From Bacillota bacterium (GTDB lineage Bacteria; Bacillota; Clostridia; Christensenellales; UBA1242): a stretch of 64,000 bases of DNA. The notes beneath the pieces are model-generated. The model was not told where the DNA came from. It searched no databases and saw only the letters and a program-made list of their open reading frames with translations. The position numbers and the translations under genes were made by a program. Positions 2,172-38,206 of the stretch are shown piece after piece; position 1 is the stretch's first letter, and every line of letters starts with the position of its first letter. Where the stretch lies: contig WRBH01000001.1 in the NCBI GenBank assembly GCA_009784665.1, positions 7,267 through 71,266 on the forward strand. Reading direction: 5' to 3'.

Positions 2172-4289
2172 GTGAGTAAGAAGGTGAAGAAAAGGGACGG
2201 GAAAATTCAAAAGTACAATCGTAAAAAGATTGCAGATGCCATATTCAAGGCCGTTAAGGATTGTGGCGGAACTAACAGGCAACGCAGCGACGAGATTGCA
2301 ATTGCGGTCGAGGAGGAGTTACTTGCGACTTTCGCTGGCAAGAACTATCCAACTGTTGAACAAGTCCAAGATATCGTGGAGAGGCACTTGATAAAAGCCG
2401 GCCACGACCAAGTCGCTAAAGCTTACATTTTGTATCGTGAAAAACGCCGTCAAGCCCGTGAACACGAGGCCTTACGAAAAGCAACAACCGAAACCTTCAA
2501 TACCTACCTAGGTGGTGATGACTTTGCCATCAAAGAAAACGCAAACCAACAGCGTTCCGTGATGGGCCTCATGAACTTTATTCGTGAGGAATTTACCAAA
2601 GGCTACTGGCTTAACGATGTTTATCCGGCAGACATTGCAGATGCACACAAGACGGGAGCATTCCACTTGCATGACCTTGGCTTCTATGGAGCGTACTGTG
2701 TTGGCTGGGATGTTAAACAAATTCTGATGATGGGCTTTACTGGTGTCCCGGGGAAAATCTCCTCTGCGCCGCCAAAGCACCTGCGAACCGCGTTAGGCCA
2801 AATTGTTAATGCAACATTCACTTTCCAAGGCGAAACCGCAGGAGCACAAGCCTGGTCATCGTTTGACACTTACCTGGCACCGTTTATCCGTTACGATAAC
2901 CTGGATTACAAACAAGTAAAACAAGCTATCCAAGAATTTGTATTTAACATGAATGTGGCAACAAGAGTTGGATTCCAATGTCCATTCAGCAATATAACTC
3001 TAGATATTACCTGCCCAAAAACACTTGCCGAAGAATTCGTTATCATCGGCGGCGAGATGCAAGGGGAAACTTATTCCGAATTCCAGGCCGAGATGGACAT
3101 GTTCAACCTGGCGTTCTGTGAAGTTATGAAAGCAGGTGATGCGTCTGGCAGGGTCTTTTCATTCCCTATCCCAACAATTAACATAACTCCACAACTGAAA
3201 TGGGATAGCCCAGTCATGGATGCAATAATGGACATGACAATCAAGTACGGGATTCCTTACTTTGCAAACTTTATTAACAGTGACCTCGATCCAGAGGACG
3301 CCGTTTCTATGTGCTGTCGTCTGCGCTTGGATGTATCCGAACTGCGAAAGCGTGGAGGTGGATTATTCGGGGCAAACCCACTGACTGGCTCGGTTGGGGT
3401 CGTCACCATTAATTTGCCACAATTAGCCTTTCTGTCAGCAAACGAGATGGAATTCTTCATCGGACTTGATCGTTTGGCCAACATGGCAAGGACCAGTCTA
3501 GAAATTAAGCGTAAAGTCGTCGAGGAACAAACTGATCGTGGCTTGTACCCATATTGTGCCTACTATCTGCAAGGCGTAAAAGATCGCAGTGGCGGGTATT
3601 GGGCAAACCACTTCAGCACCATTGGTATAGTTGGAATGCACGAAGCAATCCTGAACCTTTTTGGTGAAGGGTATGGCCTTGACACACAACATGGGCACGA
3701 ATTTGCGATAAGGGTTCTGAACTTCCTGCGTACAAAAATGCAACAATACCAAGAAGAGACTGGTAACATCTATAACTTGGAGGCTACCCCTGCCGAGGGT
3801 GTTGCGCCCCGCCTTGCAAAGATGGATAAAACGCGTCACCCAAAAATCATCACCAGTGGCGGGGACTCCCCATACTATACAAACAGCACACAGATGCCAG
3901 TGGGATTCAGTGACGATATCTACAAAACCGTCAAGTTGCAAGACGAACTGCAATCCCTGTACACTGGCGGAACAGTTCTGCATGTTTATATGGGTGAGAG
4001 GCTGGAAGACATCGATACCGCAAAAAACTTCATTCAAAAAGTATTCAGCAACAGTAAAATGCCCTACCTATCTCTGACACCAACTTTCAGTATCTGCTGT
4101 GACCACGGTTACATCAAAGGTGAAGAGTGGAATTGCCCAACATGTAAGAGGGAAACCGAGGTCTGGAGCCGAGTTGTAGGCTTCTTGCGTCCTGTGCAAA
4201 ACTATAATGCAGGTAAAACCCAAGAATACAGAGATCGTATCAAGTTCATAGTCAAGGATGATAAAACAACAGAAAAAAAGGTGGCTTAA
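2172..4289 (+). CDS. nrdD: anaerobic ribonucleoside-triphosphate reductase (class III)
   Basis: 705 aa with a GTG start behind GGGAGG. N-terminal ATP-cone (KRDGKIQKYNRKKI). C-terminal Zn-ribbon CCDHGY...CPTCK and a glycyl-radical tail SRVVGFLRPVQNYNAGKTQEYRDR. Confidence 0.95.
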   Translation: MSKKVKKRDGKIQKYNRKKIADAIFKAVKDCGGTNRQRSDEIAIAVEEELLATFAGKNYPTVEQVQDIVERHLIKAGHDQVAKAYILYREKRRQAREHEALRKATTETFNTYLGGDDFAIKENANQQRSVMGLMNFIREEFTKGYWLNDVYPADIADAHKTGAFHLHDLGFYGAYCVGWDVKQILMMGFTGVPGKISSAPPKHLRTALGQIVNATFTFQGETAGAQAWSSFDTYLAPFIRYDNLDYKQVKQAIQEFVFNMNVATRVGFQCPFSNITLDITCPKTLAEEFVIIGGEMQGETYSEFQAEMDMFNLAFCEVMKAGDASGRVFSFPIPTINITPQLKWDSPVMDAIMDMTIKYGIPYFANFINSDLDPEDAVSMCCRLRLDVSELRKRGGGLFGANPLTGSVGVVTINLPQLAFLSANEMEFFIGLDRLANMARTSLEIKRKVVEEQTDRGLYPYCAYYLQGVKDRSGGYWANHFSTIGIVGMHEAILNLFGEGYGLDTQHGHEFAIRVLNFLRTKMQQYQEETGNIYNLEATPAEGVAPRLAKMDKTRHPKIITSGGDSPYYTNSTQMPVGFSDDIYKTVKLQDELQSLYTGGTVLHVYMGERLEDIDTAKNFIQKVFSNSKMPYLSLTPTFSICCDHGYIKGEEWNCPTCKRETEVWSRVVGFLRPVQNYNAGKTQEYRDRIKFIVKDDKTTEKKVA

Positions 4290-16821: not shown

Positions 16822-16889
16822 ACTACTTCACTTATACAATCCATTGTAGTATAATTATTAATGTTGAATATGGCATAAGGAGGCCGTCT

Positions 16890-17525
16890 ATGGCAGAAAG
16901 ATTAAATGTTAACCCAACAAGAATGGAGTTGCAAAGGCAAAAAGCCCGTCTGCGTACCGCGGCAAGAGGCTGGAAACTCTTAAAAGATAAATCCGACGAA
17001 ATGATTCGTACCTTTATGGAATTAGCAAAAGAAAACAAGAGACTGCGTGAAAGCCTAGATGGCGAAGTTGTGTCTGCTTTGCAATTATTTTTAACAGCAA
17101 GCACACAGATGAGCAAAAAAGAACTTGAATCCGCGATATCTGCAACGGCCGCCAGCCGCATTTTATCATTAGAGGCCGGGACAACATCTATTATGGGTCT
17201 TCCTGTTCCGAAGCTGGAGGTCACTCGTGACGGAGGCGGCGATATAACTCTTATCAAAACTACATCCAGTTTTGACAAGTCTATCAATACGATTGCCCGC
17301 TTGTTGCGAGAATTAATGCATCTTGCGGAAATCGAGAAGTCCTGTGACATGTTGGCGTCTGAAATCATCCGGCTTCGTCGCCGAATCAACGCACTCGAAT
17401 TTATTTTGATGCCGCAAATTCGGGCGACTATCCGGTTCATCAATATGAAACTAGCCGAGAACGAGCGCTCGCAACTGGTCCGCGTCATGAAGGTCAAAGA
17501 ACAACAGGTAAAGAAGGTATCTTGA
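16890..17525 (+). CDS. ntpD: V-type ATP synthase subunit D (orphan; no other V-ATPase genes in window)
   Basis: MAERLNVNPTRMELQRQKARL..RGWKLLKDKSDEMI ... RRRINALEFILMPQI...MKLAENERSQLVRVMKVK closely follows the NtpD/AtpD family pattern. It has its own TATAAT and an AAGGAGG SD. Confidence 0.88.
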   Translation: MAERLNVNPTRMELQRQKARLRTAARGWKLLKDKSDEMIRTFMELAKENKRLRESLDGEVVSALQLFLTASTQMSKKELESAISATAASRILSLEAGTTSIMGLPVPKLEVTRDGGGDITLIKTTSSFDKSINTIARLLRELMHLAEIEKSCDMLASEIIRLRRRINALEFILMPQIRATIRFINMKLAENERSQLVRVMKVKEQQVKKVS

Positions 17526-17556: not shown

Positions 17557-18753
17557 ATGAGCAGAAAAAGAAACCAGAACTTGTTTGAAAGAAACACAAC
17601 TGTGCGTAGGTTGTCCCACCTTGCCTTGGCAGCGGTCTTTTTGAAGAGCGGAAGCTTTGCTGTGGGCGAGATTATGCAAGCAGTCGAAAACAGGCCCGCG
17701 GTGGTCGCACATCGTGAAATGGTTAACGAAGCAACCGATGCGTTTGATAATTCTGTGTTTGATTTCGTAAACCATATGTCGCAAGAGCAATTCGACCAAT
17801 TTACGCATGCCCTTGCTATGGCGAACAGCATGGCCCCTGAGGACTTTATAGCCGCCCGACATGAACCTTGGTTGGATTCCGTCATGATGTCCGACCAAAT
17901 GGTTATTCGCCGGGCAACAGGCTCTATGGTTACCAGTGGACAAAATCCCACCACAAGAAGTACTAATCTTTTAAGATTTATGGACGGTGACCTGAATCGC
18001 ATAGGAGCAAATAACAGAACCAGTACAATTGAGGGGTTTACATCCGCCGTTGGCGATATTATTAATGGAGCGACAATCGGAGAACCAGAAACAGATATGA
18101 TGGGCTTCATAAGTGACCGAATGGGTGACTTGCAACATGCTAATGCACAATCACCTGATGTTGAGCGACATGCGCGTGGGTGGGCGACGGCAGGAACAAT
18201 CGGTCTGGCCTTGGGAACAATTATTCCTAGCGTGAAACTTACGAAAATTTCGATTGTAGAAGGCAAAAATCGGAAAGAACGAAGAGCCAAGGAAAGAGAG
18301 GTCAAAAAAGAAGCACGAGCATTAAAAACCAAGGAAGAAAAAGCCGCAAAGGCATTGTTAGTCAAACAAGCAGCCGACGCCGCGGCAAAAGAAGAAGCCA
18401 AAAAGTTAGACGAAAGACGCAAAAAAGAGATGAAAGATATAACAGGCTCCTTCGCAACATTCGCCCAAACAGGTGACCCGGCCCACAGAGAAAATTTGGA
18501 AGCCTTGGCAAAAAAGATGCTGGAAACCGATGGAGACGACTACGGATTAATGAATCTCCTTAAAGAGCAAGACAGAAAAAGGTTAGATGCCAAGAGGGCA
18601 TCGATCAGTACAGATAATAAGCTTAATGTTGATGTCATGCGAAACATAGCTCAGGGCATTGTTCATGTCCCAGAAATTACTGGCGTTGCCGGCAGAGACC
18701 TTGGCAGCGAGACACAAGAGAACTGGCAAGGGGATAAAGAAAAAGAGGATTAG
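17557..18753 (+). CDS. hypothetical protein with central hydrophobic segment and Lys/Glu-rich coiled-coil region
   Basis: 398 aa from the leaderless ATG. Contains WATAGTIGLALGTIIPSV and then KNRKERRAKEREVKKEARALKTKEEKAAK. I recognise no family. Confidence 0.6.
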   Translation: MSRKRNQNLFERNTTVRRLSHLALAAVFLKSGSFAVGEIMQAVENRPAVVAHREMVNEATDAFDNSVFDFVNHMSQEQFDQFTHALAMANSMAPEDFIAARHEPWLDSVMMSDQMVIRRATGSMVTSGQNPTTRSTNLLRFMDGDLNRIGANNRTSTIEGFTSAVGDIINGATIGEPETDMMGFISDRMGDLQHANAQSPDVERHARGWATAGTIGLALGTIIPSVKLTKISIVEGKNRKERRAKEREVKKEARALKTKEEKAAKALLVKQAADAAAKEEAKKLDERRKKEMKDITGSFATFAQTGDPAHRENLEALAKKMLETDGDDYGLMNLLKEQDRKRLDAKRASISTDNKLNVDVMRNIAQGIVHVPEITGVAGRDLGSETQENWQGDKEKED

Positions 18754-18765: not shown

Positions 18766-19175
18766 ATAATGATTCGTGTGTGACGGACAATCCATTTTTT
18801 CATCCGCAATGCTAACCACGCCATAAAAATACCATAAGCAATCAATGTTAGTGTCGGGACAAGTGCAAACCCCAAAACATTTATATCGCCACCATCTCCT
18901 GAGGGCAAGACCCAAAACATAATTGAGAATGCTAATGCAATCAACATTGGCCCAAATAACAGAAGCAACACAGTTCGAAGGAACAGAAAAAGCGGACTGC
19001 CATAGAATTCATGCTGTCTTCCATCTATTATTGTGTGTTTTGACACCCAACGCTCTCTGAAGCACATTGCAAATGGCAGGGCCAATCCCATCGTAAAGGT
19101 TATTGCTAAAACAATAGTTGTATTTGTAATTATCCACATGAAAACTCCACCAGTAAATTTTGATTCTTTTTCCAT
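18750..19175 (-). CDS. small integral membrane protein (141 aa)
   Basis: Three to four predicted hydrophobic helices. Loosely resembles DUF898/YjgN. Confidence 0.6.
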   Translation of the reverse strand: MEKESKFTGGVFMWIITNTTIVLAITFTMGLALPFAMCFRERWVSKHTIIDGRQHEFYGSPLFLFLRTVLLLLFGPMLIALAFSIMFWVLPSGDGGDINVLGFALVPTLTLIAYGIFMAWLALRMKKWIVRHTRIIIKKEV

Positions 19176-27894: not shown

Positions 27895-28256
27895 TGGTGG
27901 AAGCGCCGGGATTGAACCCGGGTCCGAATGGCCGCCCAATTGATTTTCTACATGCTTAGTCACTTTGCTTTGAACTGCACACCTTACTTCTAGCGACAGA
28001 GACAAGGGTGAGACCGAGATATTTAGGTAGATACTCCTCCCGATAGAAAGTAACTACACAAGGCACTTTGTTGCCCCTGGGTCAGTAAAAGTGCGAAACT
28101 GTTTCCAGGGTTAGACCTTAAGCAGCCAGGGCCAAGTGGCCGTGACCAGCGTAAGAGGTCGAAGTAGATGTTTTTGCATCTAAAATTTGTTGCGTTTGAG
28201 GGCGCCCCCTGCATGCTTGTCAATCTTCTCTCCACCCGTCGAGTACTTTCGCCCCC
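27895..28256 (-). ncRNA. ssrA: transfer-messenger RNA (tmRNA)
   Basis: The 5' GGGGGCG pairs with the 3' CGCUUCC-ACCA and includes a G3-U pair. T-arm GGTTCAATCCCGG. Tag reading frame from GCA at 28177 to TAA at 28120-28118 encodes AKTSTSTSYAGHGHLALAA. 362 nt long. Confidence 0.93.
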
Positions 28257-28271
28257 ATACAGATATGCTTT

Positions 28272-28300
28272 ATTATATCTCATTCAAGTGATATTGTCAA
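28272..28300 (-). promoter_or_regulatory. ssrA promoter
   Basis: TTGACA (28300-28295), 17 nt, TATAAT (28277-28272), about 15 nt upstream of the mature 5' end. Confidence 0.65.
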
Positions 28301-28333
28301 CATCATCAAAAGCTCCCAGGGACACGATGGAGA

Positions 28334-28999
28334 CTAAGCCTCGATAAATTTCCACTTTCCTGTCGCCAAATCTCCTAACTGGAACTCTCCTACTGCTGTA
28401 CGCTTTAGATTCATAACCTCGTATCCAAGTGCTGCGAACATTCGGCGAACTTGACGGTTTCGACCCTGCGTGATGACCAGCCTGAATATATTGGGTGCAC
28501 CGTCATTCTGCACCTTCGCGGGGTGCGTTAACTCGCCATCGATTTCAACCCCAGCCTCGAGAATTTTCAGATGAGATTTCGTCACCGGCTTGTCTGTTAT
28601 TACAATATATGTCTTCTCGACACCTGAACGCGGATGTGTAATTTTTCGAGTGAATTCGCCATCGTTTGTTAACAACAATAATCCCTCAGTCTCATAATCC
28701 AACCTCCCTACTGCAAACAGTCTGACATCCGATGGGACTAGATCAAATACGGTTTTCCGCCCCCGTTCGTCGCGGGCAGATGTTATATATCCTCTTGGCT
28801 TGTTAAGCATTATATAAACGAAACTGCCATCCACCTGGACCTCTTTCCCATCTACTGCTACCTTATCTGTGGGTTGAACTTGGGTCCCCAGCTCCCTGAC
28901 GACTACATCGTTGATCGTCACCCTGCCTGCGGTCACAAGGTCTTCGCATTTGCGTCTTGCTCCCAATCCTGCGGCTGCCAGATATTTGTTGATTCTCAT
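28334..28999 (-). CDS. pseudouridine synthase (RsuA/RluB family) with S4 domain
   Basis: MRINKYLAAAGLGARRKCEDLV S4 domain, plus the GRLDYETEGLLLLTNDG catalytic motif. Confidence 0.9.
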   Translation of the reverse strand: MRINKYLAAAGLGARRKCEDLVTAGRVTINDVVVRELGTQVQPTDKVAVDGKEVQVDGSFVYIMLNKPRGYITSARDERGRKTVFDLVPSDVRLFAVGRLDYETEGLLLLTNDGEFTRKITHPRSGVEKTYIVITDKPVTKSHLKILEAGVEIDGELTHPAKVQNDGAPNIFRLVITQGRNRQVRRMFAALGYEVMNLKRTAVGEFQLGDLATGKWKFIEA

Positions 29000-29023
29000 G
29001 ATATTTTATGGTACACTACTCTT

Positions 29024-29335
29024 ATGGAAAAAAACAAAGTAAATTTCAAGCAGAGCATTGTCAATATTCTTGTTCTGATCTTCGTAGCAGTCATATCAGC
29101 GGTAGCATTCTTTGCATTCTTTGTCGCTGTATTCACTACTGCTAACCCATTTGCGTATTATATCGCCTCGCTGTATGTCTTATGCATGTTGCTTGCCGCA
29201 CCAACACTAAAGGTCTTCATGGATAAAAAGGAAACCCCTCCCGTTGTGCAAAAGCTAAACCTGGCAGGAATTATTACTATATTCTCTATGATTCTTCTCT
29301 TTGCCATGACAACATTTATTTATCTCGCGGTCTAA
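29024..29335 (+). CDS. small membrane protein (103 aa)
   Basis: The start is moved to ATG 29024, 6 nt after TGgTACACT. Three hydrophobic helices. Confidence 0.55.
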   Translation: MEKNKVNFKQSIVNILVLIFVAVISAVAFFAFFVAVFTTANPFAYYIASLYVLCMLLAAPTLKVFMDKKETPPVVQKLNLAGIITIFSMILLFAMTTFIYLAV

Positions 29336-30203
29336 TCAATTCGCCGTAATATTTTGGCTTCCTATAGGCATTCCCCCGAATGTCTATTTTTCTGAAATCT
29401 CGCAAAGACCTAAGGTCAAGTTGCGCGATTGCTATTTCTTCGATCTCCCCCATTACAACAAGAGCCGGGTCAACCTCTATCCTATCCAAGTTCCTAAAAA
29501 CGGGCGAATAGGCACATGATCGACCGTTACTGTCATTAGTCGATTTGGCCTGTATTGGATAGTTCACCATCAGGGTCGCAAAACAATTCTCATATGCCCT
29601 GATTTTCATCTGGGCGTGATAGATATCGTAAACATGACAGGCATTTGGTACAACTATAATTTCCGCCCCATTCAACATCAGAATTCGGGCAGCCTCTGGA
29701 AAATCTCTATCAAAACAGATCATTGAACCAATTCTTACACTACCTCGCCCAAAGTCCAGGTCGCCCACATTGAAACTATCGCCACTGTCTATAAATTTCT
29801 CCATTTTGAAATCGACGGTGTGAATTTTTGAATATTTCAGGATTTTCTTGCCAAATCTGTCAAAAATTATGACCGTGTTTTTTGGAAGTTTGTCGGTTCT
29901 TTCAAAAAAAGTAATTGCAATCGCCATTTCCAACTCTTTCGACAATCGTGCGAACGATTCAACAAAGTTATGGTTTTCAGCTATCGCCTTGTCGTGCCAG
30001 GCTTTGATCTCATCCTCGGAGACCGTGTTTTTATCCAGATATCCCTGGAACAGTAACTCATAACCATTACACCACATTTCAGGAAAAACTGCTAAATCTG
30101 CTCCCATCTTTTTCGCCTGACGACACGCATCAATTCCTTTCGCTAAGTTCCCCTCCAACGACCCTGTCGGAGAAATTTGTAACAAGGCTATATTAAAATT
30201 CAT
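29316..30203 (-). CDS. carbon-nitrogen hydrolase (nitrilase superfamily)
   Basis: VFPEMW (catalytic Glu) and MICFDRDFPE (catalytic Cys) motifs. 295 aa. Confidence 0.85.
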   Translation of the reverse strand: MNFNIALLQISPTGSLEGNLAKGIDACRQAKKMGADLAVFPEMWCNGYELLFQGYLDKNTVSEDEIKAWHDKAIAENHNFVESFARLSKELEMAIAITFFERTDKLPKNTVIIFDRFGKKILKYSKIHTVDFKMEKFIDSGDSFNVGDLDFGRGSVRIGSMICFDRDFPEAARILMLNGAEIIVVPNACHVYDIYHAQMKIRAYENCFATLMVNYPIQAKSTNDSNGRSCAYSPVFRNLDRIEVDPALVVMGEIEEIAIAQLDLRSLRDFRKIDIRGNAYRKPKYYGELIRPRDK

Positions 30204-30670
30204 TTTAATTCCTCCTGGAGATTGTGTGTGACAACATTATTGTCTTCGTCTAATTCCATGAAAAATTCAAGTTTTTCTCCGTTCAACAAACGCGGCAGCC
30301 ACAAGATATCTCCCGACCACATCTCGCTATACGGAACCTGGTCAATATCAAACCAAGCAGGAGCCATTTCGTCCGATTCGGTTGGCTCGCCCTCGTATTC
30401 CGTCGCGATATACATGTGGCCGAATAATCGTGCCCTTTCGCCTTTGAAATAAACTATAAATTCGGCAAGTCCTACCTTTTCAAACTTGGTTGGCGTTATG
30501 CCAATTTCTTCCTGGGTTTCACGAATTGCCGCCGCCGTGATGTCTTCACCCTCGTCAACCTTGCCGCCTATTCCATTATAAATTCCCGCACGCCAGCCAC
30601 GCTTTTTCCTGCCAAGTAATATCCGTCCATCTTGAACCACCCACAGCAATGTCGCGACTATTTCCTTCAC
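30200..30670 (-). CDS. NUDIX hydrolase (MutT-like)
   Basis: Nudix box GGKVDEGEDITAAAIRETQEEIGI. Confidence 0.88.
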   Translation of the reverse strand: MKEIVATLLWVVQDGRILLGRKKRGWRAGIYNGIGGKVDEGEDITAAAIRETQEEIGITPTKFEKVGLAEFIVYFKGERARLFGHMYIATEYEGEPTESDEMAPAWFDIDQVPYSEMWSGDILWLPRLLNGEKLEFFMELDEDNNVVTHNLQEELK

Positions 30671-30694
30671 AAACTCATTGTATCATACTATAAT
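30666..30694 (+). promoter_or_regulatory. leaderless promoter of proC
   Basis: TTCACA (30666-30671), 17 nt, TATAAT (30689-30694), 5 nt, ATG 30700. Confidence 0.6.
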
Positions 30695-30699
30695 AGTTT

Positions 30700-31476
30700 A
30701 TGAAAATCGGATTTATTGGGGCAGGTAATATGGCAGTCGCCATGATGAAAGGCATGCAGGCTAAGCATCTAGATATTTTCGCAACGGACATCGATAATGA
30801 AAAGCTCAAGGGTCTTGAAAAGATAGGCGTAAATATTCTTACAAGTAATCAAAATATCGTCGATGTCGCAGATGTGATAGTTCTGGCAATCAAACCTCAG
30901 CAGTACAAGGATATTATAACCAACTTAAAAACCCCTCCCGATAAAATTTTTTTGACTATGGCCCCTGGAATAACCCTTGCAATGGTTAAGGATTGGTCAG
31001 GCGGCGGTCGAGTAGTGCGGACGATGCCTAACACCCCTGCACTTATTGGTGAGGGGGTGACCGCAGTTTGCTTTGGGCAAGGCTTCGATAATTACGAACT
31101 TGAATTTATTAAGTCAATGCTAGGAGACTTTTCTGCGGTATTTCAAATCGAGGAAGAACAAATGGATTTGGCAATCGCTATATCGGGAAGCTCGCCCATA
31201 TTTGGCTATAAAATTATTGAAATAGTGTCGGCATTTGCAAAAAAAAATGGATTTAGTGAAGCAATGGCAAAAAAGATGATTGCAAAAACTCTAATTGGAT
31301 CGGCAATGATGGTCCTAGCCAGTGATGATTCTCCCGCGACTCTTATCGATCGTGTTTGCTCAAAAGGTGGAACGACAGAGCAATTAGTTAAGACTCTGGA
31401 TAATAATAATCTGGCTGGAATTATTCACCAAGGATTAGCAGCGTGTGTTGCTAGGGCTAGAAATCTTGCTCTCTAG
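30700..31476 (+). CDS. proC: pyrroline-5-carboxylate reductase
   Basis: MKIGFIGAGNMA Rossmann start, RTMPNTPALIGEG, and the CSKGGTTE C-terminal motif. Confidence 0.93.
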   Translation: MKIGFIGAGNMAVAMMKGMQAKHLDIFATDIDNEKLKGLEKIGVNILTSNQNIVDVADVIVLAIKPQQYKDIITNLKTPPDKIFLTMAPGITLAMVKDWSGGGRVVRTMPNTPALIGEGVTAVCFGQGFDNYELEFIKSMLGDFSAVFQIEEEQMDLAIAISGSSPIFGYKIIEIVSAFAKKNGFSEAMAKKMIAKTLIGSAMMVLASDDSPATLIDRVCSKGGTTEQLVKTLDNNNLAGIIHQGLAACVARARNLAL

Positions 31477-31900
31477 AGGCTGCCTTATCTAAATCCCTTT
31501 CCTTCAGTGTCTGTTTTTTATCGTGCAGCTTCTTGCCCTTTGCAAGAGCAATTTCCGCCTTTAATAATCCACGACTGGTAAAATACAGTTTAGTGCATAT
31601 ACAGGTTACACCTTTGCTGGCAACCGCTTTGTGCAACTTTTCAATTTGGTTTTTCTTTAATAATAATCGTCGATTGCGGGTCGGGTCTTGGTCGCGATCG
31701 GGGCTGTTTTTATATTTTGCAAAGTGTGCATTTTTTAAGAACGCCTCGCCATCAACAAATCGTACAAATGATTCAGCCAAGCTGACCGCCCCCATCCGGG
31801 CGGACTTGACTTCCCATCCGAAAAGCTCCACCCCTGCCTCGATCTTGTCCTCCAGATGATAGTTGAACCGTGCTTTCCGATTTTCCGCGACTACTGGCAT
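31457..31900 (-). CDS. smpB: SsrA-binding protein
   Basis: AENRKARFNYHLEDKIEAGVELFGWEVKS...DPTRNRRLLLKKNQI. The start is moved to MPVVAENRK at 31900. Overlaps proC by 20 nt. Confidence 0.93.
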   Translation of the reverse strand: MPVVAENRKARFNYHLEDKIEAGVELFGWEVKSARMGAVSLAESFVRFVDGEAFLKNAHFAKYKNSPDRDQDPTRNRRLLLKKNQIEKLHKAVASKGVTCICTKLYFTSRGLLKAEIALAKGKKLHDKKQTLKERDLDKAASREQDF

Positions 31901-31927
31901 ATAATAACATACCAGAAAACCTCTATC

Positions 31928-31956
31928 TTGACAAATCGCAAAATTTGTTGTATACT
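31928..31956 (+). promoter_or_regulatory. leaderless promoter of orf122, back-to-back with the smpB promoter
   Basis: TTGACA (31928-31933), 17 nt, TATACT (31951-31956), 6 nt, ATG 31963. On the other strand: TTGTCA (31934-31929), 17 nt, TGgTATGTT, 5 nt, ATG 31900. Confidence 0.65.
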
Positions 31957-31962
31957 TTACAC

Positions 31963-32331
31963 ATGACAACAAGAGAATCTCAGCTTAAAATAATCAGACA
32001 AATTACATCATCCGCTGTAAAAGACAAACATGATGACTCCGCTTATAGCGGCTATCATCCTTACAACATGACAAGTCTTAATGCTTTCTCAGACGACGAA
32101 ATCGAGCAGATTCTTAACAACCTGCAACCGCACTTTGAAGAAGTATCTTCGCATAAAGCACAAATAAAAGAGCTGACTAACACAATGGATTCGAAAATAA
32201 AGCATGTTGTTGACGAAGCGAACAGGCGTCGAAAGCTGAATGAATTACAAAAGAGCTTTGATTTGAATGCACTACTAAACGAGCAAACTCCCGTCGAAGC
32301 CCCATGGGTACAAAGCGAGATGGAATCATAA
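31963..32331 (+). CDS. hypothetical protein (122 aa)
   Basis: Intact ORF starting at the leaderless ATG. I recognise no family. Confidence 0.55.
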   Translation: MTTRESQLKIIRQITSSAVKDKHDDSAYSGYHPYNMTSLNAFSDDEIEQILNNLQPHFEEVSSHKAQIKELTNTMDSKIKHVVDEANRRRKLNELQKSFDLNALLNEQTPVEAPWVQSEMES

Positions 32332-33291
32332 TTAAATGCCCACGGCAATCTTTACTCTTTCAAGGGTTGCCTGGGCTTTTTTTCTTGCCCTGCCTGCCCC
32401 TTCGGACAGGATTTTTTCAACCTCGGCATAATTCGCCATGTAATAGTCAAACTTCTCACGCATTGGGGTCAGCTCCCTATTGGCAACCTCGTACAGTTCT
32501 TTTTTTACATCGCCCCAGCCTATGCCGACGAGAAACCTCTTGGCCATGGTATCGGTCTCCTGCTTGGTTGCAAACAAACTGTATAACTGAAACAAAACAT
32601 GGTCGGTCGGCTTTGGCTCGGATGGCAGAGAGCTATCCGTTGTAATTCGCATAATGTGTTTTTTCAGTTCATTTGCGGGGGCGAACAGTGGTATTTGGTT
32701 GCCATAGCTTTTGGACATTTTACGACCGTCAAGACCTGGTATCGTGGCAACGGATTTTTCAATTAATGACTCTGGCACTGTAAATGTTTGCCCGTAAATC
32801 GCATTGAATGCACGGGCGATGTGCTTGGCATTTTCAAGGTGCTGTTCTTGGTCTTTACCTACCGGGACATGTGTCGTGTCAAATGCCAAGATGTCGGCAC
32901 TCATCAAAATTGGATAGTTATACAAACCCATATTAATTGACTGCCCTTCATCCATAGCAGCTTTATATGCGTGCGATCTGTCCAGCTCACCCTTTGGGGT
33001 AATATTTTGAACTATGGTGAAAATCTCGAAAATCTCAGAAACATCCGACTGTTTATAAAACACAGTCCTCTTTGGATCTAGTCCGCACGCCAACCACGCA
33101 CACGCCAACTCTTTTACAAGGCCTCGCATCGTTTTCGCATCCTTGACTGTGGTTAACGCATGATAATCGGCAATAAACAAGTAATCCGCTCCCAACTCGA
33201 TTGCGGGTCGGATCGCACCGAATAAATTCCCAACATGCGGAATCCCCGTGGGCTTGACGCCCGTTAAAATTGTTCGTTTTGTATCTTTCAT
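32332..33291 (-). CDS. trpS: tryptophan--tRNA ligase
   Basis: GVKPTGIPHVGNLFGA (HIGH-type) and KMSKS motifs. 319 aa. TTGCTC-17-TATAAT (33303-33298)-6 nt-ATG. Confidence 0.95.
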   Translation of the reverse strand: MKDTKRTILTGVKPTGIPHVGNLFGAIRPAIELGADYLFIADYHALTTVKDAKTMRGLVKELACAWLACGLDPKRTVFYKQSDVSEIFEIFTIVQNITPKGELDRSHAYKAAMDEGQSINMGLYNYPILMSADILAFDTTHVPVGKDQEQHLENAKHIARAFNAIYGQTFTVPESLIEKSVATIPGLDGRKMSKSYGNQIPLFAPANELKKHIMRITTDSSLPSEPKPTDHVLFQLYSLFATKQETDTMAKRFLVGIGWGDVKKELYEVANRELTPMREKFDYYMANYAEVEKILSEGAGRARKKAQATLERVKIAVGI

Positions 33292-33309
33292 AAGATGATT
33301 ATACCTTAA

Positions 33310-33996
33310 TTATTTCCGGCGAGCAATAAATTCCCACGCTCCTTTTGATTTTCCCATTCGCTGTTCAAATTTATTTTCGAGGTATAAAAATTCAAAATCG
33401 CCAAAAAATTTATTGATACAATCACGGCTGAAAAACCTAATATGTTTTGTGCGACCACTATCAAATATTTCGTGATAGTGATTCGGTTCAATTTCCTGAA
33501 ATGTCCCTCTATGCTTTACGAATTCCCACTCCTCCGTTGAAACGACCGAGCCTACTAAAAATCCATCTTTCTTCAGAATCCGCTTAGCCTCGGTAATCGC
33601 GTTGCGGGTGTCAAATTCGCTGAAATAGTGCAGAGACAAATTCGCGATTACTATATCAAAATCTTCGTCATCAAACGGAAGCGGCTTTGTTATATCTAAA
33701 ACTTTTGTTTTAATATTTGACGAGTGGCTCTTCAAAACAGCCAAAGCATTTTCCGAAAAGTCCACCGCCGTCACACAGGCACCAAGCTTTTCAAAAAACA
33801 AACTCAGCTGCCCATAGCCACACCCTAAATCGATAACCCTACTGCCCACAGCACTTTCAGCAACCTGGCCAAATTCAGGCAGGTTTTCAACCCACAATTT
33901 GTCCGTCAAAATTTTCGCAGTCGCCGCCTGCAGACCTTGTCTCATGATTTCCTTATCATCACTAAAGCGGGCGTTCCACCATTCCTTTTGACTCAA
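33310..33996 (-). CDS. class I SAM-dependent methyltransferase
   Basis: VIDLGCGYGQLS motif I. 228 aa. Confidence 0.85.
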   Translation of the reverse strand: MSQKEWWNARFSDDKEIMRQGLQAATAKILTDKLWVENLPEFGQVAESAVGSRVIDLGCGYGQLSLFFEKLGACVTAVDFSENALAVLKSHSSNIKTKVLDITKPLPFDDEDFDIVIANLSLHYFSEFDTRNAITEAKRILKKDGFLVGSVVSTEEWEFVKHRGTFQEIEPNHYHEIFDSGRTKHIRFFSRDCINKFFGDFEFLYLENKFEQRMGKSKGAWEFIARRK

Positions 33997-35177
33997 AATT
34001 CGACCTCCTGCTCCCCGCCTGTGGCCATGTCCTTGATCCTGATTCTGCCGTCTGACAACTCCTTCTCACCTACAACTGCCACAGACGGAATCCCAACCTT
34101 GTCCGCATATTCAAACGCCTTACCGACTTTCATACCACTTAGAATCAGAACTCTTTTTCCAGCCGCCCTGAATCTATCGGCAACGGCCTGAGACTGAACA
34201 AAGTTCTTCATACTGATGATTAACAGGTCCACCGGGCTGGCAACCACCTGTAATTCTTGCAACAGATACATAATAGGCTCAAGCCCAAACGCCATACCTA
34301 CTGCGGGATACTCAAGGCCATTGTCTACCCAGTCTGTGATAATGTTATCGTACCTACCTCCACCGCCCAGACTGCCAGCAATCCTTGCGTTTTTATCAAA
34401 GACCTCCCACACTGTACCCGTATAGACATTCAGACCTCGGGCAAGACTCGGCGTGTAAGCACAATATTCACTTACGCCCATCTCGTCTAACAATCTGGAT
34501 AACTCTTCAACTTCTTCGTTCCTAATACCTTTTTCAAGTTCAACAAGTAATTTTTTGACCTCCGCCTTGGAAATCAATTTTTCCAGTTCGGTTTCTAATT
34601 CCTTCTTGGAAATCTTTTCCATTTTATCAATCACAGCGATGACTTTCTCGGTATTGTTTGGAATCAAAGATGATAATACTTTCCTGTTGCCATATTTGAC
34701 AAGAGGCGTTATACCCAACTCCAGATAACATTTGACAGCCATGGCGATAAGTTCAGCCTCGACCTCAACGCCCTTTTGCCCTACAACATCAATATCGCAT
34801 TGATAAAACTCTCGCAGCCTCCCTGCCTTGACGGGGCCATTACGCCAAACTTTACCTATTTCGTACCGCCTAAAAGGCATCTTGATATCACGGTTGGTTG
34901 CTATAAATTTCGCGAACGGCACGGTCAAGTCAAACCGCAGACCCAAATCACGATCCCCTTGGTCTTTTATTTTGTAAATCTCGCGAACAATCTCGGCATC
35001 CGATTCATACTTGTACCCCAGAACTTCCATGTAATTTAACATCGCCGTTTCAATCGGCACAAAGCCATGTAACTCGAAATTCCGTTTCAATATATCGATG
35101 ACTCTGTTACGGATTATTTGCTCGGCTGGCAGAGTATCGGCCGCCCCCTTGATGTTAGTTGGTTTAAATTTACCCAT
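33993..35177 (-). CDS. hisS: histidine--tRNA ligase
   Basis: Class II motifs including LRFDLTVPFAKF, FRRYEIGKVWR and REFYQCDIDVVG, plus a C-terminal HGTP anticodon-binding domain (AAGKRVLILS...YADKVGIPSVAVVGEKEL). GGAGGG SD. Confidence 0.9.
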   Translation of the reverse strand: MGKFKPTNIKGAADTLPAEQIIRNRVIDILKRNFELHGFVPIETAMLNYMEVLGYKYESDAEIVREIYKIKDQGDRDLGLRFDLTVPFAKFIATNRDIKMPFRRYEIGKVWRNGPVKAGRLREFYQCDIDVVGQKGVEVEAELIAMAVKCYLELGITPLVKYGNRKVLSSLIPNNTEKVIAVIDKMEKISKKELETELEKLISKAEVKKLLVELEKGIRNEEVEELSRLLDEMGVSEYCAYTPSLARGLNVYTGTVWEVFDKNARIAGSLGGGGRYDNIITDWVDNGLEYPAVGMAFGLEPIMYLLQELQVVASPVDLLIISMKNFVQSQAVADRFRAAGKRVLILSGMKVGKAFEYADKVGIPSVAVVGEKELSDGRIRIKDMATGGEQEVEF

Positions 35178-35211
35178 ATCTTATATTACCCTCCTTTCGC
35201 ACTTTTCGCAA

Positions 35212-35496
35212 CTAGTGTATGCTGTAGCCCTGCTCATCCCCAACAATCTCCCCTTCCCGGGTATATCTCTGCTCAGAGACTTCACTACTACGCTCTGCGT
35301 TTTGCAGCCTAGCCTCCTTCCGCCATATTGCCTTACGAAGCTTATCCCCAAATTTGAAATATTCATCAGCCACTGTATTGTACAAGCCTAAGTCCAGTGC
35401 CTTTTCTAGCATAGTGTCGCCATACTCAACGAACTCCTTGCTGTAACAACGAACCTTTTTCTCTTCCCAACACTCCATTTCTCTTAATTTTGACAT
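35212..35496 (-). CDS. hypothetical protein (94 aa), first gene after the His leader
   Basis: The start is moved to MSKLREMECW, behind AAAGGAGGA. I recognise no family. Confidence 0.5.
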   Translation of the reverse strand: MSKLREMECWEEKKVRCYSKEFVEYGDTMLEKALDLGLYNTVADEYFKFGDKLRKAIWRKEARLQNAERSSEVSEQRYTREGEIVGDEQGYSIH

Positions 35497-35537
35497 TTCT
35501 GTCCTCCTTTTAATTTCTCTGAACACCTAAAACGCAC

Positions 35538-35634
35538 AAAAAAACCGCAATCTCGGTTTAGCGGACTGCGGCTGATGTAGTTTCTAGATGCTAATTAGAT
35601 AGTCAAAAACCACACACGGCAATCCGTGCATGGT
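35538..35634 (-). promoter_or_regulatory. putative His-responsive transcription attenuator (alternative hairpins plus U-tracts)
   Basis: Segments 1:2 pair 35634-35624 with 35619-35609 (11 bp). Segments 2:3 pair 35614-35608 with 35573-35567 (7 bp). Segments 3:4 pair 35573-35564 with 35552-35543 (10 bp), followed by a U-run reaching 35538. Confidence 0.6.
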
Positions 35635-35683
35635 GGTGATGCATATTCCCTGCTTTTAATCTCGTGGCACTCTGGGTGTTCAT
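35603..35683 (-). CDS. putative His-rich leader peptide MNTQSATRLKAGNMHHHHARIAVCGF
   Basis: A leaderless ATG lies 6 nt after TATAAT. Four consecutive His codons, CAT CAC CAC CAT, at 35641-35630. Stop TGA at 35605-35603, directly after hairpin segment 2. Confidence 0.55.
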   Translation of the reverse strand: MNTQSATRLKAGNMHHHHARIAVCGF

Positions 35684-35689
35684 AGCCCT

Positions 35690-35719
35690 ATTATATGATA
35701 TCTAAGCACTGTTTGTCAA
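35690..35719 (-). promoter_or_regulatory. promoter of the His leader / hisS operon
   Basis: TTGACA (35719-35714), 18 nt, TATAAT (35695-35690). Confidence 0.65.
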
Positions 35720-35722
35720 GCC

Positions 35723-36412
35723 CTACATTACCACAAAAAACAAAATCGCAAAGAACTGCAAAATCGAACCCAGCAAGACAAATAAATGCCAAATACTGTG
35801 GATATATTTCTTTTTGTGTCCGAGTGCATAAAATACCGCCCCCACTGTATATGCAACCCCACCCAGGGCGGTCAAGATAATTCCAACGGGATGCAAAACC
35901 CTAACAATCGGAACAATGGCGACTATGCAACTCCATCCCATTGCCAGGTATGCGGTCATACTTACCCGCCTGACGGTTTTATCGTACATATTAATGGCAT
36001 TAAATACAATTCCTATAATTGCACACAACCACACTACACTAAACAAAGCCCATCCCCATGCCCCTTGGTCTCGCAATAAAATCAGACAAAACGGTGTATA
36101 TGTTCCGGCAATCAATAAGAATATCGAGCAATGATCCAAAATACGAAAAACTCTTTTTGCCCTGTTTGGACGCAAGAAATGATAAATCGAGCTTGCAATA
36201 TACAGCAGAATCAAGCTTATGCCGTATATAACCATAGCCACAATTGCCAAGGCGTCCCCATAAATCGCCGCAAATACAACTCCTACCACAAGAAAAATTA
36301 CACCCAGAGATGCCCCAACGATATGGGTCACGGCATTGAAAACCTCCTCTCCCTTGGTAAATCCCGGCAGTGCCTTTTTGTCCTTTACTTCCATCAATAA
36401 ATTATATGTCAT
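35723..36412 (-). CDS. hemolysin III family (PAQR) membrane protein
   Basis: 229 aa with 7 TM helices and family motifs EEVFNAVTHIVG, SSIYH and HLFVL. Confidence 0.88.
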   Translation of the reverse strand: MTYNLLMEVKDKKALPGFTKGEEVFNAVTHIVGASLGVIFLVVGVVFAAIYGDALAIVAMVIYGISLILLYIASSIYHFLRPNRAKRVFRILDHCSIFLLIAGTYTPFCLILLRDQGAWGWALFSVVWLCAIIGIVFNAINMYDKTVRRVSMTAYLAMGWSCIVAIVPIVRVLHPVGIILTALGGVAYTVGAVFYALGHKKKYIHSIWHLFVLLGSILQFFAILFFVVM

Positions 36413-36520
36413 GAACTACATTATTTCAACGAACATTTTTAATAAGGATTCAAAATATGTCACAATTCGGTTCGTTTTTGAAAATCATGTGATATACTGT
36501 GGTATCTCACTGGAGGCACT

Positions 36521-38206
36521 ATGAAAACCAAAACTCAAGCCAATAAAAAAAATCTCAAGAAACCCTTGGAAACCCTTGAAAACCCTCAAGAAACCCTCAC
36601 CCCCCCCCCTATTTCTGAAAAACCCTCAAGGAATGTATTAATCGGGCTATCCTGGCCGTATGCAAACGGCCGCCTGCATATTGGGCATGCCGCGTCCAGT
36701 TTGCCCGCCGATGCCCTTGCCCGATATCATCGAATGATTGGAAACGAAGTCGCATTTGTCAGTGGCAGTGATTGTTACGGAACACCAATTTTGGTCGCGG
36801 CAAAGTCCGAGGGTATAGCCCCTACTGAATTGTCCGACAAATACCATCAATACCATACTGACGATTTCAATTCTCTCAATTTCACATTCGATAATTATAC
36901 TAAAACAACAACCCCAACACATGGTGACTTTGTCCGCTGTTTCCACCGACAAATGTACGACGGAAAATATGTCTTTGAAAAGACCGAGCCACAACTATAT
37001 TGCGGCACTTGCGTTAAATATCTACCCGACAGATTCGTCGAGGGAACTTGCCCACATTGCAAGGCGGATGCAAAAGGAGATTCGTGTGATGGTTGTGGGA
37101 AAATTCTGGAGCCAGAAGATCTTGTTGACCCAAAATGCAAACTATGCTCAGGAAACCCAGTGGCACGCGACACAAAACAACTATATCTTGCCCTGTCGAA
37201 ACTGGAACCCGAAATCCGCAAGTTTTATGATTTACATAAAGACAGCTGGGCAAACAATGCCATTGGACTGACGGGGCGATACCTCAAGGAAGGTCTTCAC
37301 GATCGTGCAATCACCCGCAATATCGAATGGGGTGTGGGCCTCCCACCCGAAGCTAAATCGAAGTTCAACCTCAGCGACGAGGAGTTCGCCGAGAAGAAAA
37401 TCTACATCTGGGCAGAAAATGTCCTCGGCTACCTCAGTGCAGCAAAAGAGGTTTCAGCATCTTTCACTGAAACTCCCTCATCTCTTTTTTACTTTGTCCA
37501 TGCCAAGGATAATATTCCGTTTCACTCTATAATTCTTCCAGGGCTTTTAATCGCGGGGGGGAAAGAACTGCCCCAGTGGATAATGGTCAGCAGCGAGTAT
37601 GTCCGACTTGCCGACAATAAAATGAGCAAATCCACCGGGAACATGATAACAATCAAAGACTTGGTGTGCAAATACGACCCTGATATGATCCGCTTTTATT
37701 TTCTTCGAAATGTTAACGACCGCAAGGATGTAAACTTTACTGAGGAAGATTTCAAAGCGGTCATCAATTCGGAACTTATCAATGGATTCGGGAACCTAGT
37801 CAACCGCACTCTTTCCTTCATAAACTCAAAATTGGATGGGAAATTAGATATCAAGTCATCGGGTAATAAAGAAATCTTTAATGAAGTTGGTAAACTTATT
37901 CATGAAGGAAAAACAAACAAGGCTCTGGCAAAAATTTGGGAAGTGGTGACGGCAGGAAACAAACTCTTCGATGAATCTGCTCCATGGAAATCAATTAAAG
38001 AAGATGTGAAAAAATGTGAAAAGGACCTAGGCGAAGTCGTGACAATTATCGCAAATTTAGCACGGTTACTATACCCATTTATTCCAACAGCGTGCGAGAA
38101 GATTGCCAGATGGTTAGGAGTAGCACTTGACAAGTGGGAACCTGTCCAATTAAAGAAAACAATCTCGCTGGGCGAGATTGCAATCTTGTGGACTCGGTTG
38201 ACTTAA
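36521..38206 (+). CDS. metG: methionine--tRNA ligase with a low-complexity N-terminal extension
   Basis: PYANGRLHIGHA and KMSKS motifs, and CxxC zinc knuckles (CGTC...CPHC, CDGC...CKLC). GGAGG SD. About 35 extra N-terminal residues. Confidence 0.95.
   Translation: MKTKTQANKKNLKKPLETLENPQETLTPPPISEKPSRNVLIGLSWPYANGRLHIGHAASSLPADALARYHRMIGNEVAFVSGSDCYGTPILVAAKSEGIAPTELSDKYHQYHTDDFNSLNFTFDNYTKTTTPTHGDFVRCFHRQMYDGKYVFEKTEPQLYCGTCVKYLPDRFVEGTCPHCKADAKGDSCDGCGKILEPEDLVDPKCKLCSGNPVARDTKQLYLALSKLEPEIRKFYDLHKDSWANNAIGLTGRYLKEGLHDRAITRNIEWGVGLPPEAKSKFNLSDEEFAEKKIYIWAENVLGYLSAAKEVSASFTETPSSLFYFVHAKDNIPFHSIILPGLLIAGGKELPQWIMVSSEYVRLADNKMSKSTGNMITIKDLVCKYDPDMIRFYFLRNVNDRKDVNFTEEDFKAVINSELINGFGNLVNRTLSFINSKLDGKLDIKSSGNKEIFNEVGKLIHEGKTNKALAKIWEVVTAGNKLFDESAPWKSIKEDVKKCEKDLGEVVTIIANLARLLYPFIPTACEKIARWLGVALDKWEPVQLKKTISLGEIAILWTRLT

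Follow-up and report, generated by a model that had tools for sequence, protein, structure and literature searches.

The hisS Leader Region

The sequence under study is a window of 64,000 nucleotides (nt), the whole stretch of DNA that was analysed, taken from a metagenome-assembled genome (MAG) labelled as Firmicutes. On its minus strand, the window encodes a histidyl-tRNA synthetase (HisRS) gene, hisS, within the gene series orf94-hisS-methyltransferase-trpS. The short region between the upstream gene hlyIII/trhA and orf94 contains a promoter, a short open reading frame (ORF) with four consecutive histidine codons, and the strands of three competing RNA helices. With a probability of roughly 0.7, this arrangement is a ribosome-mediated leader-peptide transcription attenuator, which would sense charged tRNA(His) and control the four genes that follow. 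The core of this proposal, a His attenuator with the 1:2 / 2:3 / 3:4 logic, was first put forward in a sequence-only reading of the window. That core was supported by the computations; the identity of the antiterminator, the expectation of a T-box and the rarity claimed for the system needed correction.

The promoter is of the sigma-70 type and starts 4 nt past the stop codon of hlyIII/trhA. It is the sole 12/12 match in the part of the window that was scanned for promoters (33000-37000). Six nucleotides (AGGGCT) separate its -10 box from the ATG of the leader ORF. The ORF carries no Shine–Dalgarno (SD) sequence, and the ATG is the predicted 5′ end of the transcript, so placed by the position of the promoter. 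A profile search with the leader peptide returned no protein-family match. The sequence-only reading had described the promoter (TTGACA-18-TATAAT, 6 nt before the ATG) and the 26-codon ORF with its four His codons in the same way, and both were recovered when the minus strand was re-read. Its coordinates were correct to within 1 nt; the leader stop codon starts 3 nt, and not 4 nt as it had stated, past segment 2, the 3′ arm of hairpin 1.

A leaderless ATG is credible as the start of this ORF because the same geometry opens 15 long ORFs in the window as well as hisS in eight relatives. The window holds 18 promoters that match at least 10/12 positions and have an ATG or GTG 4-8 nt past the -10 box, and 15 of these open ORFs of 84-688 amino acids (aa). 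This bears out the earlier statement that about 20 other genes of the window are leaderless. The commonest spacing between the -10 box and the start codon at these sites is 6 nt, as in the leader. The exact arrangement TTGACA-18-TATAAT-6-ATG also precedes a real gene of 141 aa at 19175, and TTGACA-17-TATAAT-6-ATG is found at 17557. The NCBI start of hlyIII itself (223 aa) is a leaderless ATG at 36394.

The four His codons are the proposed sensor, at which the ribosome would stall if His-tRNA(His) became scarce. The last 5 nt of the run fall within the 5′ arm of hairpin 1. The pattern (CAY)4 occurs once on both strands of the window (128 kb of two-strand sequence), and this single site is the one in the leader, in frame. 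By chance, 0.11 such runs would be expected in a window and 1.7e-4 in a leader of 190 nt. As in an attenuator, a short leader ORF with tandem codons cognate to the downstream hisS is present; its start is supported by the leaderless geometry, and its translation is predicted. The coordinates of the leader elements and of the downstream genes are collected in Table 1.

Table 1. Elements of the hisS leader and the genes that surround it.
Feature	Position	Strand	Details
hlyIII/trhA stop codon	35725-35723	minus	
Sigma-70-type promoter	35690..35719	minus	TTGACA 35719-35714, 18-nt spacer, TATAAT 35695-35690; coordinates verified
Leaderless 26-codon leader ORF	35603..35683	minus	MNTQSATRLKAGNMHHHHARIAVCGF; ATG at 35683, stop UGA 35605-35603
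Four consecutive His codons	35630..35641	minus	CAU CAC CAC CAU, codons 15-18 of the leader ORF
Hairpin 1 (1:2)	35604..35634	minus	35634-35624 pairs with 35619-35609; loop AUUG, then UUUU-GA; 11 base pairs (bp) including 2 G-U
Antiterminator (2:3)	35562..35626	minus	Composite long hairpin of 26 bp; -26.2 kcal/mol
Attenuator terminator (3:4, hairpin 2)	35536..35573	minus	35573-35562 pairs with 35555-35543; loop CUAAAC, then U-run; 12 bp, one bulge
orf94	35496-35212	minus	First gene after the attenuator; SD AAGGAGGA at 35509-35502; called by gene callers
hisS	35177-33993	minus	SD AAAGGAGG at 35197-35190, inside a degenerate promoter TTGCGA-17-TAATAT-5-ATG (35211-35183, 8/12)
S-adenosylmethionine methyltransferase	33996-33310	minus	4-nt overlap with the hisS stop codon
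trpS	33291-32332	minus	After an 18-nt gap

Alternative Secondary Structures of the Leader RNA

The RNA can form three helices, the significance of which was expressed as z-scores against dinucleotide shuffles (200 for hairpin 1 and for the antiterminator). Hairpin 1 has a free energy of -17 kcal/mol (z = -3.8; 0/200 shuffles) and was scored as terminator-like. When no ribosome is modelled, it forms part of the minimum free energy (MFE) structure with a probability (P) of 0.92. The sequence-only reading had given it an 11-bp stem with two G-U pairs, followed by a U-run. The stem is as described; only 4 U follow it (5 if the closing pair is counted), and the last of them belongs to the UGA stop codon. 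Judged by its predicted fold, hairpin 1 may act as a terminator-like or a pause hairpin. It probably also ends the transcripts of hlyIII and leader transcripts that are not translated. There is no terminator belonging to hlyIII itself ahead of the leader, and both hairpins lie 90-185 nt past its stop codon; termination of hlyIII would be a plausible reason for the U-run of hairpin 1.

The attenuator terminator has a free energy of -16 kcal/mol and a z-score of -3.9. It is followed by a U-run to 35538, with 7 consecutive U of which 2 are in the stem. Both hairpin and U-tract had been noted previously, with a stem of 10 bp that is in fact 12 bp long. An intrinsic terminator is therefore located where an attenuator has it, past the leader ORF and ahead of the first structural gene.

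The antiterminator is built from three parts. Its basal helix joins 35626-35619 (CGGAUUGC) to 35569-35562 (GCAGUCCG), the middle pairs GU (35617-35616) with GC (35572-35571), and the apical part pairs 35615-35600 with 35590-35575. At -26.2 kcal/mol it has a z-score of -4.45, with 0/200 shuffles. From hairpin 1 it takes up the loop, the whole 3′ arm and the U-run; it also includes the stop codon of the leader ORF, as well as 10 nt of the 12-nt 5′ arm of the terminator. Its 5′ basal strand, GGAUUGC, resembles the 3′ arm of the terminator, AGAUUGCGG, a likeness that is expected because both strands compete for the same partner.

A different antiterminator had been proposed originally, a 7-bp 2:3 helix between 35614-35608 and 35573-35567. 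The bases are indeed complementary (UA GC UG GC GC UG UA), but the helix is worth -5.0 kcal/mol as opposed to -26.2 kcal/mol and was never predicted; it is the helix of 35626-35562 that competes instead. The broader claim of three mutually exclusive folds is supported by the folding, and each of the three helices is individually significant. Since hairpin 1, the antiterminator and the terminator share strands, they are pairwise exclusive in the manner of the trp and his attenuators: the antiterminator excludes both the terminator and the upstream 1:2 hairpin. Free of ribosomes, the leader folds as hairpin 1 plus hairpin 2, with an MFE of -45.6 kcal/mol for 161 nt (z = -2.1).

Effect of Ribosome Position on Leader Folding

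The ribosome was simulated by masking the RNA up to a moving boundary, after which the pair probabilities were computed. The leading edge of the ribosome was assumed to lie approximately 12 or 13 nt from the A-site codon, the value for E. coli. The terminator keeps a P of 0.92-0.97 if no ribosome is modelled, if the ribosome has yet to reach the His codons, if its A site has moved on to His17, His18 or a later codon, and if it sits at the stop codon; in this last case P is 0.96. Only masks with an end at 35628-35626 lower this value, to 0.04-0.25; they correspond to His15 or His16 in the A site, given the assumed leading edge.

The order of synthesis was followed by folding RNAs of growing length. 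Once 35562 has been transcribed, approximately 20 nt before the 3′ arm of the terminator is complete, masks that end at 35629-35626 give the full antiterminator as the MFE structure (-24 to -26 kcal/mol). As the antiterminator is formed beforehand, the terminator would have to displace a helix of 26 bp. With masks that end at 35623 or 35620, the apical part is all that forms (about -11 kcal/mol), and it gives way to the terminator. In these simulations the attenuator model depends on register and holds when the ribosome stalls at either of the first two His codons; this lends it support, not proof.

The hisS Operon and Its Surroundings

The first gene past the attenuator, orf94, has a consensus SD at the correct spacing. 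The 41 nt between the U-run of the terminator and the ATG of orf94 contain no promoter, nor room for one. Transcription of orf94 must therefore pass both hairpins. A search of 5.8 billion proteins returned no homologue of the product but itself; the other members of its cluster are this gene called from another start codon. Neither Pfam nor NCBIfam gave a match. The gene may be specific to the lineage or have arisen de novo, or else be a spacer ORF whose translation serves no function.

The product of hisS is a true HisRS, with 314.9 bits to TIGR00442 (cutoff 286.75) and an anticodon-binding domain. The related protein HisZ was considered and rejected: the hisZ models score far below their cutoffs, TIGR00442 lies above its own, and the anticodon-binding domain is present. 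The gaps between orf94, hisS, the methyltransferase gene and trpS are 34, -4 and 18 nt. No terminator of note was found from orf94 to trpS, nor any convincing promoter between the distal genes. They probably constitute one transcription unit.

The wider neighbourhood of metG, hisS, trpS, smpB and transfer-messenger RNA (tmRNA; 27895-38206) is conserved across related MAG contigs (L082, L084, L087, L175). The tmRNA is encoded at 28256-27895 (114.6 bits). The inserts between these anchors vary: hlyIII, orf94 and the methyltransferase gene are found here, and helix-turn-helix proteins, a Bro-N protein or a NUDIX protein in the relatives. Because these genes are clustered, an origin in a huge phage was also considered. 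It was dropped, as the synteny recurs in the related MAG contigs and the databases name Firmicutes MAG proteins.

hisS in Related Genomes and the Absence of a T-Box

A T-box has been reported upstream of Bacillus hisS and of most synthetase genes in Firmicutes (PMC2965389, PMC1262725), and the sequence-only reading expected one here while finding none. Its absence was confirmed. A cmscan of the whole window at the gathering score found the tmRNA only. With E <= 10 and permissive filters, a scan of both strands of 35150-35800 gave no T-box (RF00230), no His_leader (RF00514) and no known small RNA family. Matches near the leader were at the level of chance, namely FtrA with 17.9 bits (cutoff 134) and the L31 leader with 13.6 bits, and the best E was 4.6. 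The motif TGGNACCRCG does not occur in the hisS upstream region of the window (L081).

The expectation itself does not hold for this lineage. Nine relatives were compared at their hisS loci (L082, L083, L084, L087/L089, L090, L091, L173/L174, L175), with HisS proteins that are 57-79% identical. Many of these loci keep the metG...hisS-trpS-smpB(-tmRNA) neighbourhood, and the adjacency of hisS and trpS is ancestral among them. No hlyIII, leader or orf94 is found at this place in any of the nine. Eight were read upstream of hisS (L082, L083, L084, L087, L090, L091, L173, L175). In all eight, hisS lacks an SD, and a -10 box with 5-6/6 matches ends 5-8 nt before its ATG (TATAAT, TATATT, TACAAT, TATACT, TACAAT, TATCAT, TATACT and TATAAT). 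An Rfam scan of five of the relatives' loci revealed no T-box.

The hisS of the window is the exception. It has gained an AGGAGG SD and lost the consensus -10 box, its promoter matching at only 8/12 positions. The gene is probably dependent on transcription from upstream, given its new SD and the decay of its promoter, neither of which is seen in the eight relatives. From the comparison of these upstream regions, hisS appears to have switched from its own constitutive leaderless promoter to an upstream one gated by the attenuator. This switch is indirect evidence that the leader matters for hisS.

The search was extended to a total of 175 loci of HisS relatives, drawn from the protein database, GTDB genomes and JGI metagenomes, and the leader of the window was found in none of the 175. 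The 500-600 nt upstream of hisS in all fetched loci were scanned by regular expression for runs of at least three His codons. Applied to a further 155 loci of the hisS family (GTDB genomes and JGI metagenomes), this approach detected few T-box core motifs and, apart from the leader of the window, a single genuine leader with His codons (L126). Matches in L044, L093 and L099 were rejected as leaders, as their His runs lie within or at the end of upstream protein genes. None of the other hisS loci fetched contains a run of four His codons. The nearest relatives of hlyIII (74-78% identical) reside in unrelated contexts with no leader. For a scan of metagenome collections, the degenerate leader pattern CAYCAYCAYCAY would be swamped by chance matches.

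The leader of L126 (JGI Ga0156435_108, 2280-2500) is a separate His-leader attenuator. It has a promoter (TTGACA-17-TATAAC) and an ORF, MKTGKTTISDRAITPSGFDVHHHIARS, which is followed by a terminator; between the two is a perfect 16-bp hairpin that contains the stop codon. It has no Rfam match. Downstream are a full-length hisS-like gene in the position of hisZ (TIGR00442, 395.7 bits), hisG in its short form and hisD. L126 is an attenuator of a his biosynthesis operon, of the kind already described in Firmicutes.

Proposed Mechanism of Attenuation

Under the attenuator model, transcription would start at the A of the ATG at 35683, and the leader ORF would be translated as a leaderless message, which is the norm for first genes in this genome. 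If no ribosome is present on the leader, hairpin 1 and the terminator would both form. This would include read-through transcripts from hlyIII, in which the ATG is internal and has no SD. Transcription would then cease either at 35538 or earlier, at the weak U-run that follows hairpin 1.

When histidine is sufficient, the ribosome would reach the UGA at 35605-35603. Because this stop codon lies within the 5′ strand of the antiterminator, the unstalled ribosome would block that helix. The terminator would then form, and transcription would end before orf94. When His-tRNA is scarce, the ribosome would stall with His15 or His16 in its A site, covering the 5′ arm of hairpin 1 and leaving the RNA from 35626 onward free. 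This freed strand could pair with 35593-35562 to give the antiterminator of -26 kcal/mol, ahead of the synthesis of the terminator 3′ arm. RNA polymerase would then read into orf94, hisS, the methyltransferase gene and trpS. The sequence elements, their significance, the exclusivity of the helices and the way in which the fold varies with the position of the ribosome are computed results; from them we infer the start of transcription, translation of the ORF, stalling, the efficiencies of termination and the response to histidine.

Several points weigh against this mechanism. The main weakness is that no homologue was returned for the leader segment, which was sought through its neighbouring genes, for orf94 or for the hlyIII-leader-orf94 arrangement, as a result of which neither conservation nor covariation of the leader can be assessed. 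The system is a single instance that is known from sequence alone. At equilibrium, the antiterminator wins over just a 3-nt range of leading-edge positions, with a margin of 1-2.5 kcal/mol that is within the error of the energy model, and a stall at His17 or His18 leaves the terminator intact. The modelled register rests on the footprint of the E. coli ribosome, which may not be that of this organism. The model also needs tight coupling of transcription and translation, which is assumed for this lineage. Hairpin 1 is terminator-like, and transcripts might end there regardless of the ribosome. The first gene past the attenuator is the orphan orf94 and not hisS, and the remnant promoter before hisS could supply that gene independently.

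A more specific and rather doubtful form of the attenuator model holds that the system is recently born and lineage-specific. A segment with hlyIII, the leader and the orphan gene lies between metG and hisS in one genome, and hisS would have moved from its ancestral constitutive leaderless promoter, which all eight relatives retain, to SD-dependent, operon-internal control by a new leaderless leader peptide that senses histidine. Two checkpoints would operate. The first is the terminator-like hairpin 1, which would be passed only with a translating ribosome and would also end hlyIII transcripts; the second is the His-dependent terminator. In this form, the leader would be the first case of leader-peptide control of a housekeeping HisRS in Firmicutes.

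Alternative Explanations

The leader may be a real attenuator with another signal or target. It could serve as a general translation gate in the manner of pyrBI, or chiefly control orf94 with hisS expressed from the remnant promoter TTGCGA-17-TAATAT-5-ATG. The leader ORF extends across hairpin 1 and stops within the U-run, such that a ribosome following closely would suppress this hairpin; the narrow equilibrium window of the antiterminator and the location of orf94 directly downstream also fit this account. A general gate, however, leaves unexplained the unique run of four His codons before hisS, as well as a second terminator with a dedicated and significant antiterminator. As to the target, the strong SD of hisS and the decay of its promoter to 8/12, compared with -10 boxes of 5-6/6 in eight relatives, argue for read-in from upstream. 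The account is considered unlikely.

That there is no regulation at all is improbable. The two hairpins would then be tandem intrinsic terminators of hlyIII, which has no other; the promoter, ORF and His codons would be coincidental, hisS would be expressed from its own weak promoter, and orf94 would not be a real gene. The orphan status of orf94, the absence of the leader from all of the relatives' loci examined and a promoter scan that overall found about as many sites as in shuffled sequence (10 against 8.3) are in keeping with this. It nonetheless requires a joint coincidence of the only 12/12 promoter in the scanned region, an ATG at the modal spacing, the sole in-frame run of four His codons and a bridging helix with a z-score of -4.45. 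Furthermore, orf94 is called by gene callers and has a consensus SD at the correct spacing, and hisS alone among the relatives has lost its consensus -10 box and gained an SD.

The promoter, ORF and terminator-like hairpin with its U-run would also make up a self-contained unit of approximately 80 nt. An independent small gene ending at hairpin 1 could therefore encode an RNA of about 80 nt, or a 26-residue peptide with four His residues that possibly binds metal, unrelated to hisS in either case. Examples from other bacteria indicate that leader peptides and RNAs derived from attenuators can act in trans (PMC6614838, PMC7298713). Against a small gene of this type are the lack of an RNA- or protein-family match, the lack of a homologue of orf94 or of the flanking arrangement, and the lack of a four-His run in the other hisS loci fetched. 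It also leaves unexplained the second terminator, the antiterminator that links it to hairpin 1 and the lack of a promoter for the orf94-hisS genes. Such a gene would be compatible with the attenuator model; as a replacement for it, the idea is quite improbable.

A non-canonical, T-box-like tRNA sensor, with CAU/CAC as specifiers and the UGGU in the 3′ arm of hairpin 1 binding the acceptor end of the tRNA, is hardly credible: the leader does contain His codons and a UGG strand (GUGUGGU, 35615-35609) together with terminator and antiterminator alternatives, but there is no T-box match at E <= 10 with permissive filters, UGGU would fit an A73 discriminator whereas bacterial tRNA(His) has C73, and four tandem in-frame codons in a properly started ORF are the signature of ribosome sensing. 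What speaks for such a sensor in general is that T-boxes are the usual control of aminoacyl-tRNA synthetase genes in Firmicutes (PMC2965389, PMC1262725).

Relationship to Known Attenuators

The leader follows the plan of the enterobacterial hisL (RF00514) and trp-type attenuators. It shares with them a short ORF with tandem His codons (as in hisL), the exclusive 1:2 / 2:3 / 3:4 helices, an intrinsic terminator before the first structural gene and a stop codon that is placed to block the antiterminator. The E. coli hisL has seven His codons, compared with four here. Further differences from hisL are the lack of a match to RF00514, the leaderless start in place of an SD and the U-run on the 1:2 hairpin. 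The target is a synthetase operon rather than histidine biosynthesis, and the host is a Firmicutes MAG.

Attenuators of tRNA synthetase genes are also known. The classical examples are pheST in gamma-proteobacteria and trpS and leuS in Streptomyces, and none was then known for the synthetase genes of Firmicutes (PMC1262725, 2005). These systems share with the present leader the cognate-codon leader peptide and the terminator and antiterminator. They differ in amino acid and phylum, and in the present operon an orphan ORF precedes the synthetase gene, which comes second.

Within the Firmicutes, His leader peptides have been predicted before a Bacillus hisS paralogue and hisZ, which was described as a switch from the T-box of the main hisS (PMC2965389, 2010). 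His-leader attenuators with 3-5 His codons have likewise been predicted for the his operons of the B. cereus group, Peptostreptococcaceae/Lutispora and Erysipelotrichales (PMC9413887, 2022). The His_leader model of Rfam has no matches in Firmicutes (PMC9413887). Compared by description, the present leader has what these papers report: four His codons that abut hairpin 1, a terminator and an antiterminator, in a Firmicutes-labelled genome with no T-box match at the locus. Phylum, amino acid and a run of 3-5 His codons right before a hairpin or terminator are common to all of these leaders, L126 included, and one precedes a gene of the HisS family. The described leaders control his biosynthesis operons or a paralogue. 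In contrast, the hisS studied here is the syntenic gene next to trpS-smpB that is common to all relatives, and its leader ORF is leaderless. With L126 in particular, a motif HHH-x-AR is held in common, and no other likeness was seen by eye in the unaligned sequences.

Leaderless sensory ORFs have been described in mycobacteria, where leaderless poly-Cys short ORFs are Cys-responsive attenuators that act via unmasking of the ribosome-binding site (bioRxiv 10.1101/834739). The present leader resembles this Cys ribulon in that a polycistronic mRNA would begin with a leaderless short ORF containing a run of codons for one amino acid, and in a predicted sensing that is based on stalling and acts on the downstream genes. 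The predicted output here is transcription termination, and phylum and amino acid differ. Unlike in the Cys ribulon, the SD of orf94 lies approximately 30 nt past the terminator, outside all three helices, and is not paired with them in the MFE structure of the full leader. A T-box would have the same purpose, that of monitoring the charging of tRNA(His), and the same output, but it senses uncharged tRNA directly and without translation.

With these precedents (PMC2965389, PMC9413887, bioRxiv 10.1101/834739), the rarity attached to the system by the sequence-only reading was overstated. Each ingredient has a precedent; the combination is new, and not different in kind. It comprises a syntenic housekeeping hisS, a Clostridia-like MAG, a leaderless start, a termination output and a terminator-like 1:2 hairpin.

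If functional, the leader would extend leader-peptide attenuation to the main HisRS gene of a Clostridia-like Firmicute, in a phylum whose synthetase genes are mostly described as under T-box control (PMC1262725, PMC2965389). It would also add an example with a termination output to the leaderless sensory short ORFs, which have so far been shown in mycobacteria. Should the lineage-specific form of the model be true, the locus would provide an example of attenuators arising de novo. Among the relatives compared, only this genome has the putative attenuator together with a newly gained SD and a promoter in decay; the comparison would offer a rare before-and-after view of a housekeeping gene captured by an RNA switch. 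Genomes rich in leaderless genes may hold sensory short ORFs that have no SD and are overlooked by gene callers and by Rfam. A scan for a promoter, an ATG, a codon run and a terminator could uncover further leaders.

Other Leaderless Starts in the Window

Leaderless genes in first position of an operon are found throughout the window, with examples at 6833(+), 9996(-), 17557(+), 19175(-), 30700(+), 36394(-), 39282(-) and 45935(+). The pattern is the same here and in the relatives: the ATG follows a consensus -10 box at a distance of 5-7 nt and lacks an SD. Operon-internal genes have a strong AGGAGG. Such widespread leaderless starts are unusual for a genome labelled as Firmicutes, and they matter for the annotation of gene starts.

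On the plus strand between trpS and smpB, opposite to these genes, is a leaderless ORF of 122 aa (31963-32331; TTGACA-17-TATACT-6-ATG) with no significant Pfam match. At the same position, L082 has a gene of 132 aa with no Pfam match on record.

Two further short ORFs are located close to promoter-like sequences on the plus strand. At 2085-2175, a promoter-like sequence (TTGAAA-18-TATAGT) is followed 4 nt on by the ATG of a 20-codon ORF, MGWDLYYILWCDTIDEREVV. The end of this ORF overlaps the GTG start of nrdD, the gene for the anaerobic ribonucleotide reductase (2172-4289). The same region has two repeats containing ACTATA, which may be operator boxes, and the ORF is either a chance ORF or another leader. 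At 16861-16889, a strong promoter (TTCACT-17-TATAAT) is followed 5 nt on by an ATG that opens an ORF of only 5 codons (MLNMA). It sits just ahead of the SD-led gene for V-type ATPase subunit D (16890-17525), and may be a mini-ORF with which the transcript begins, or else coincidental.

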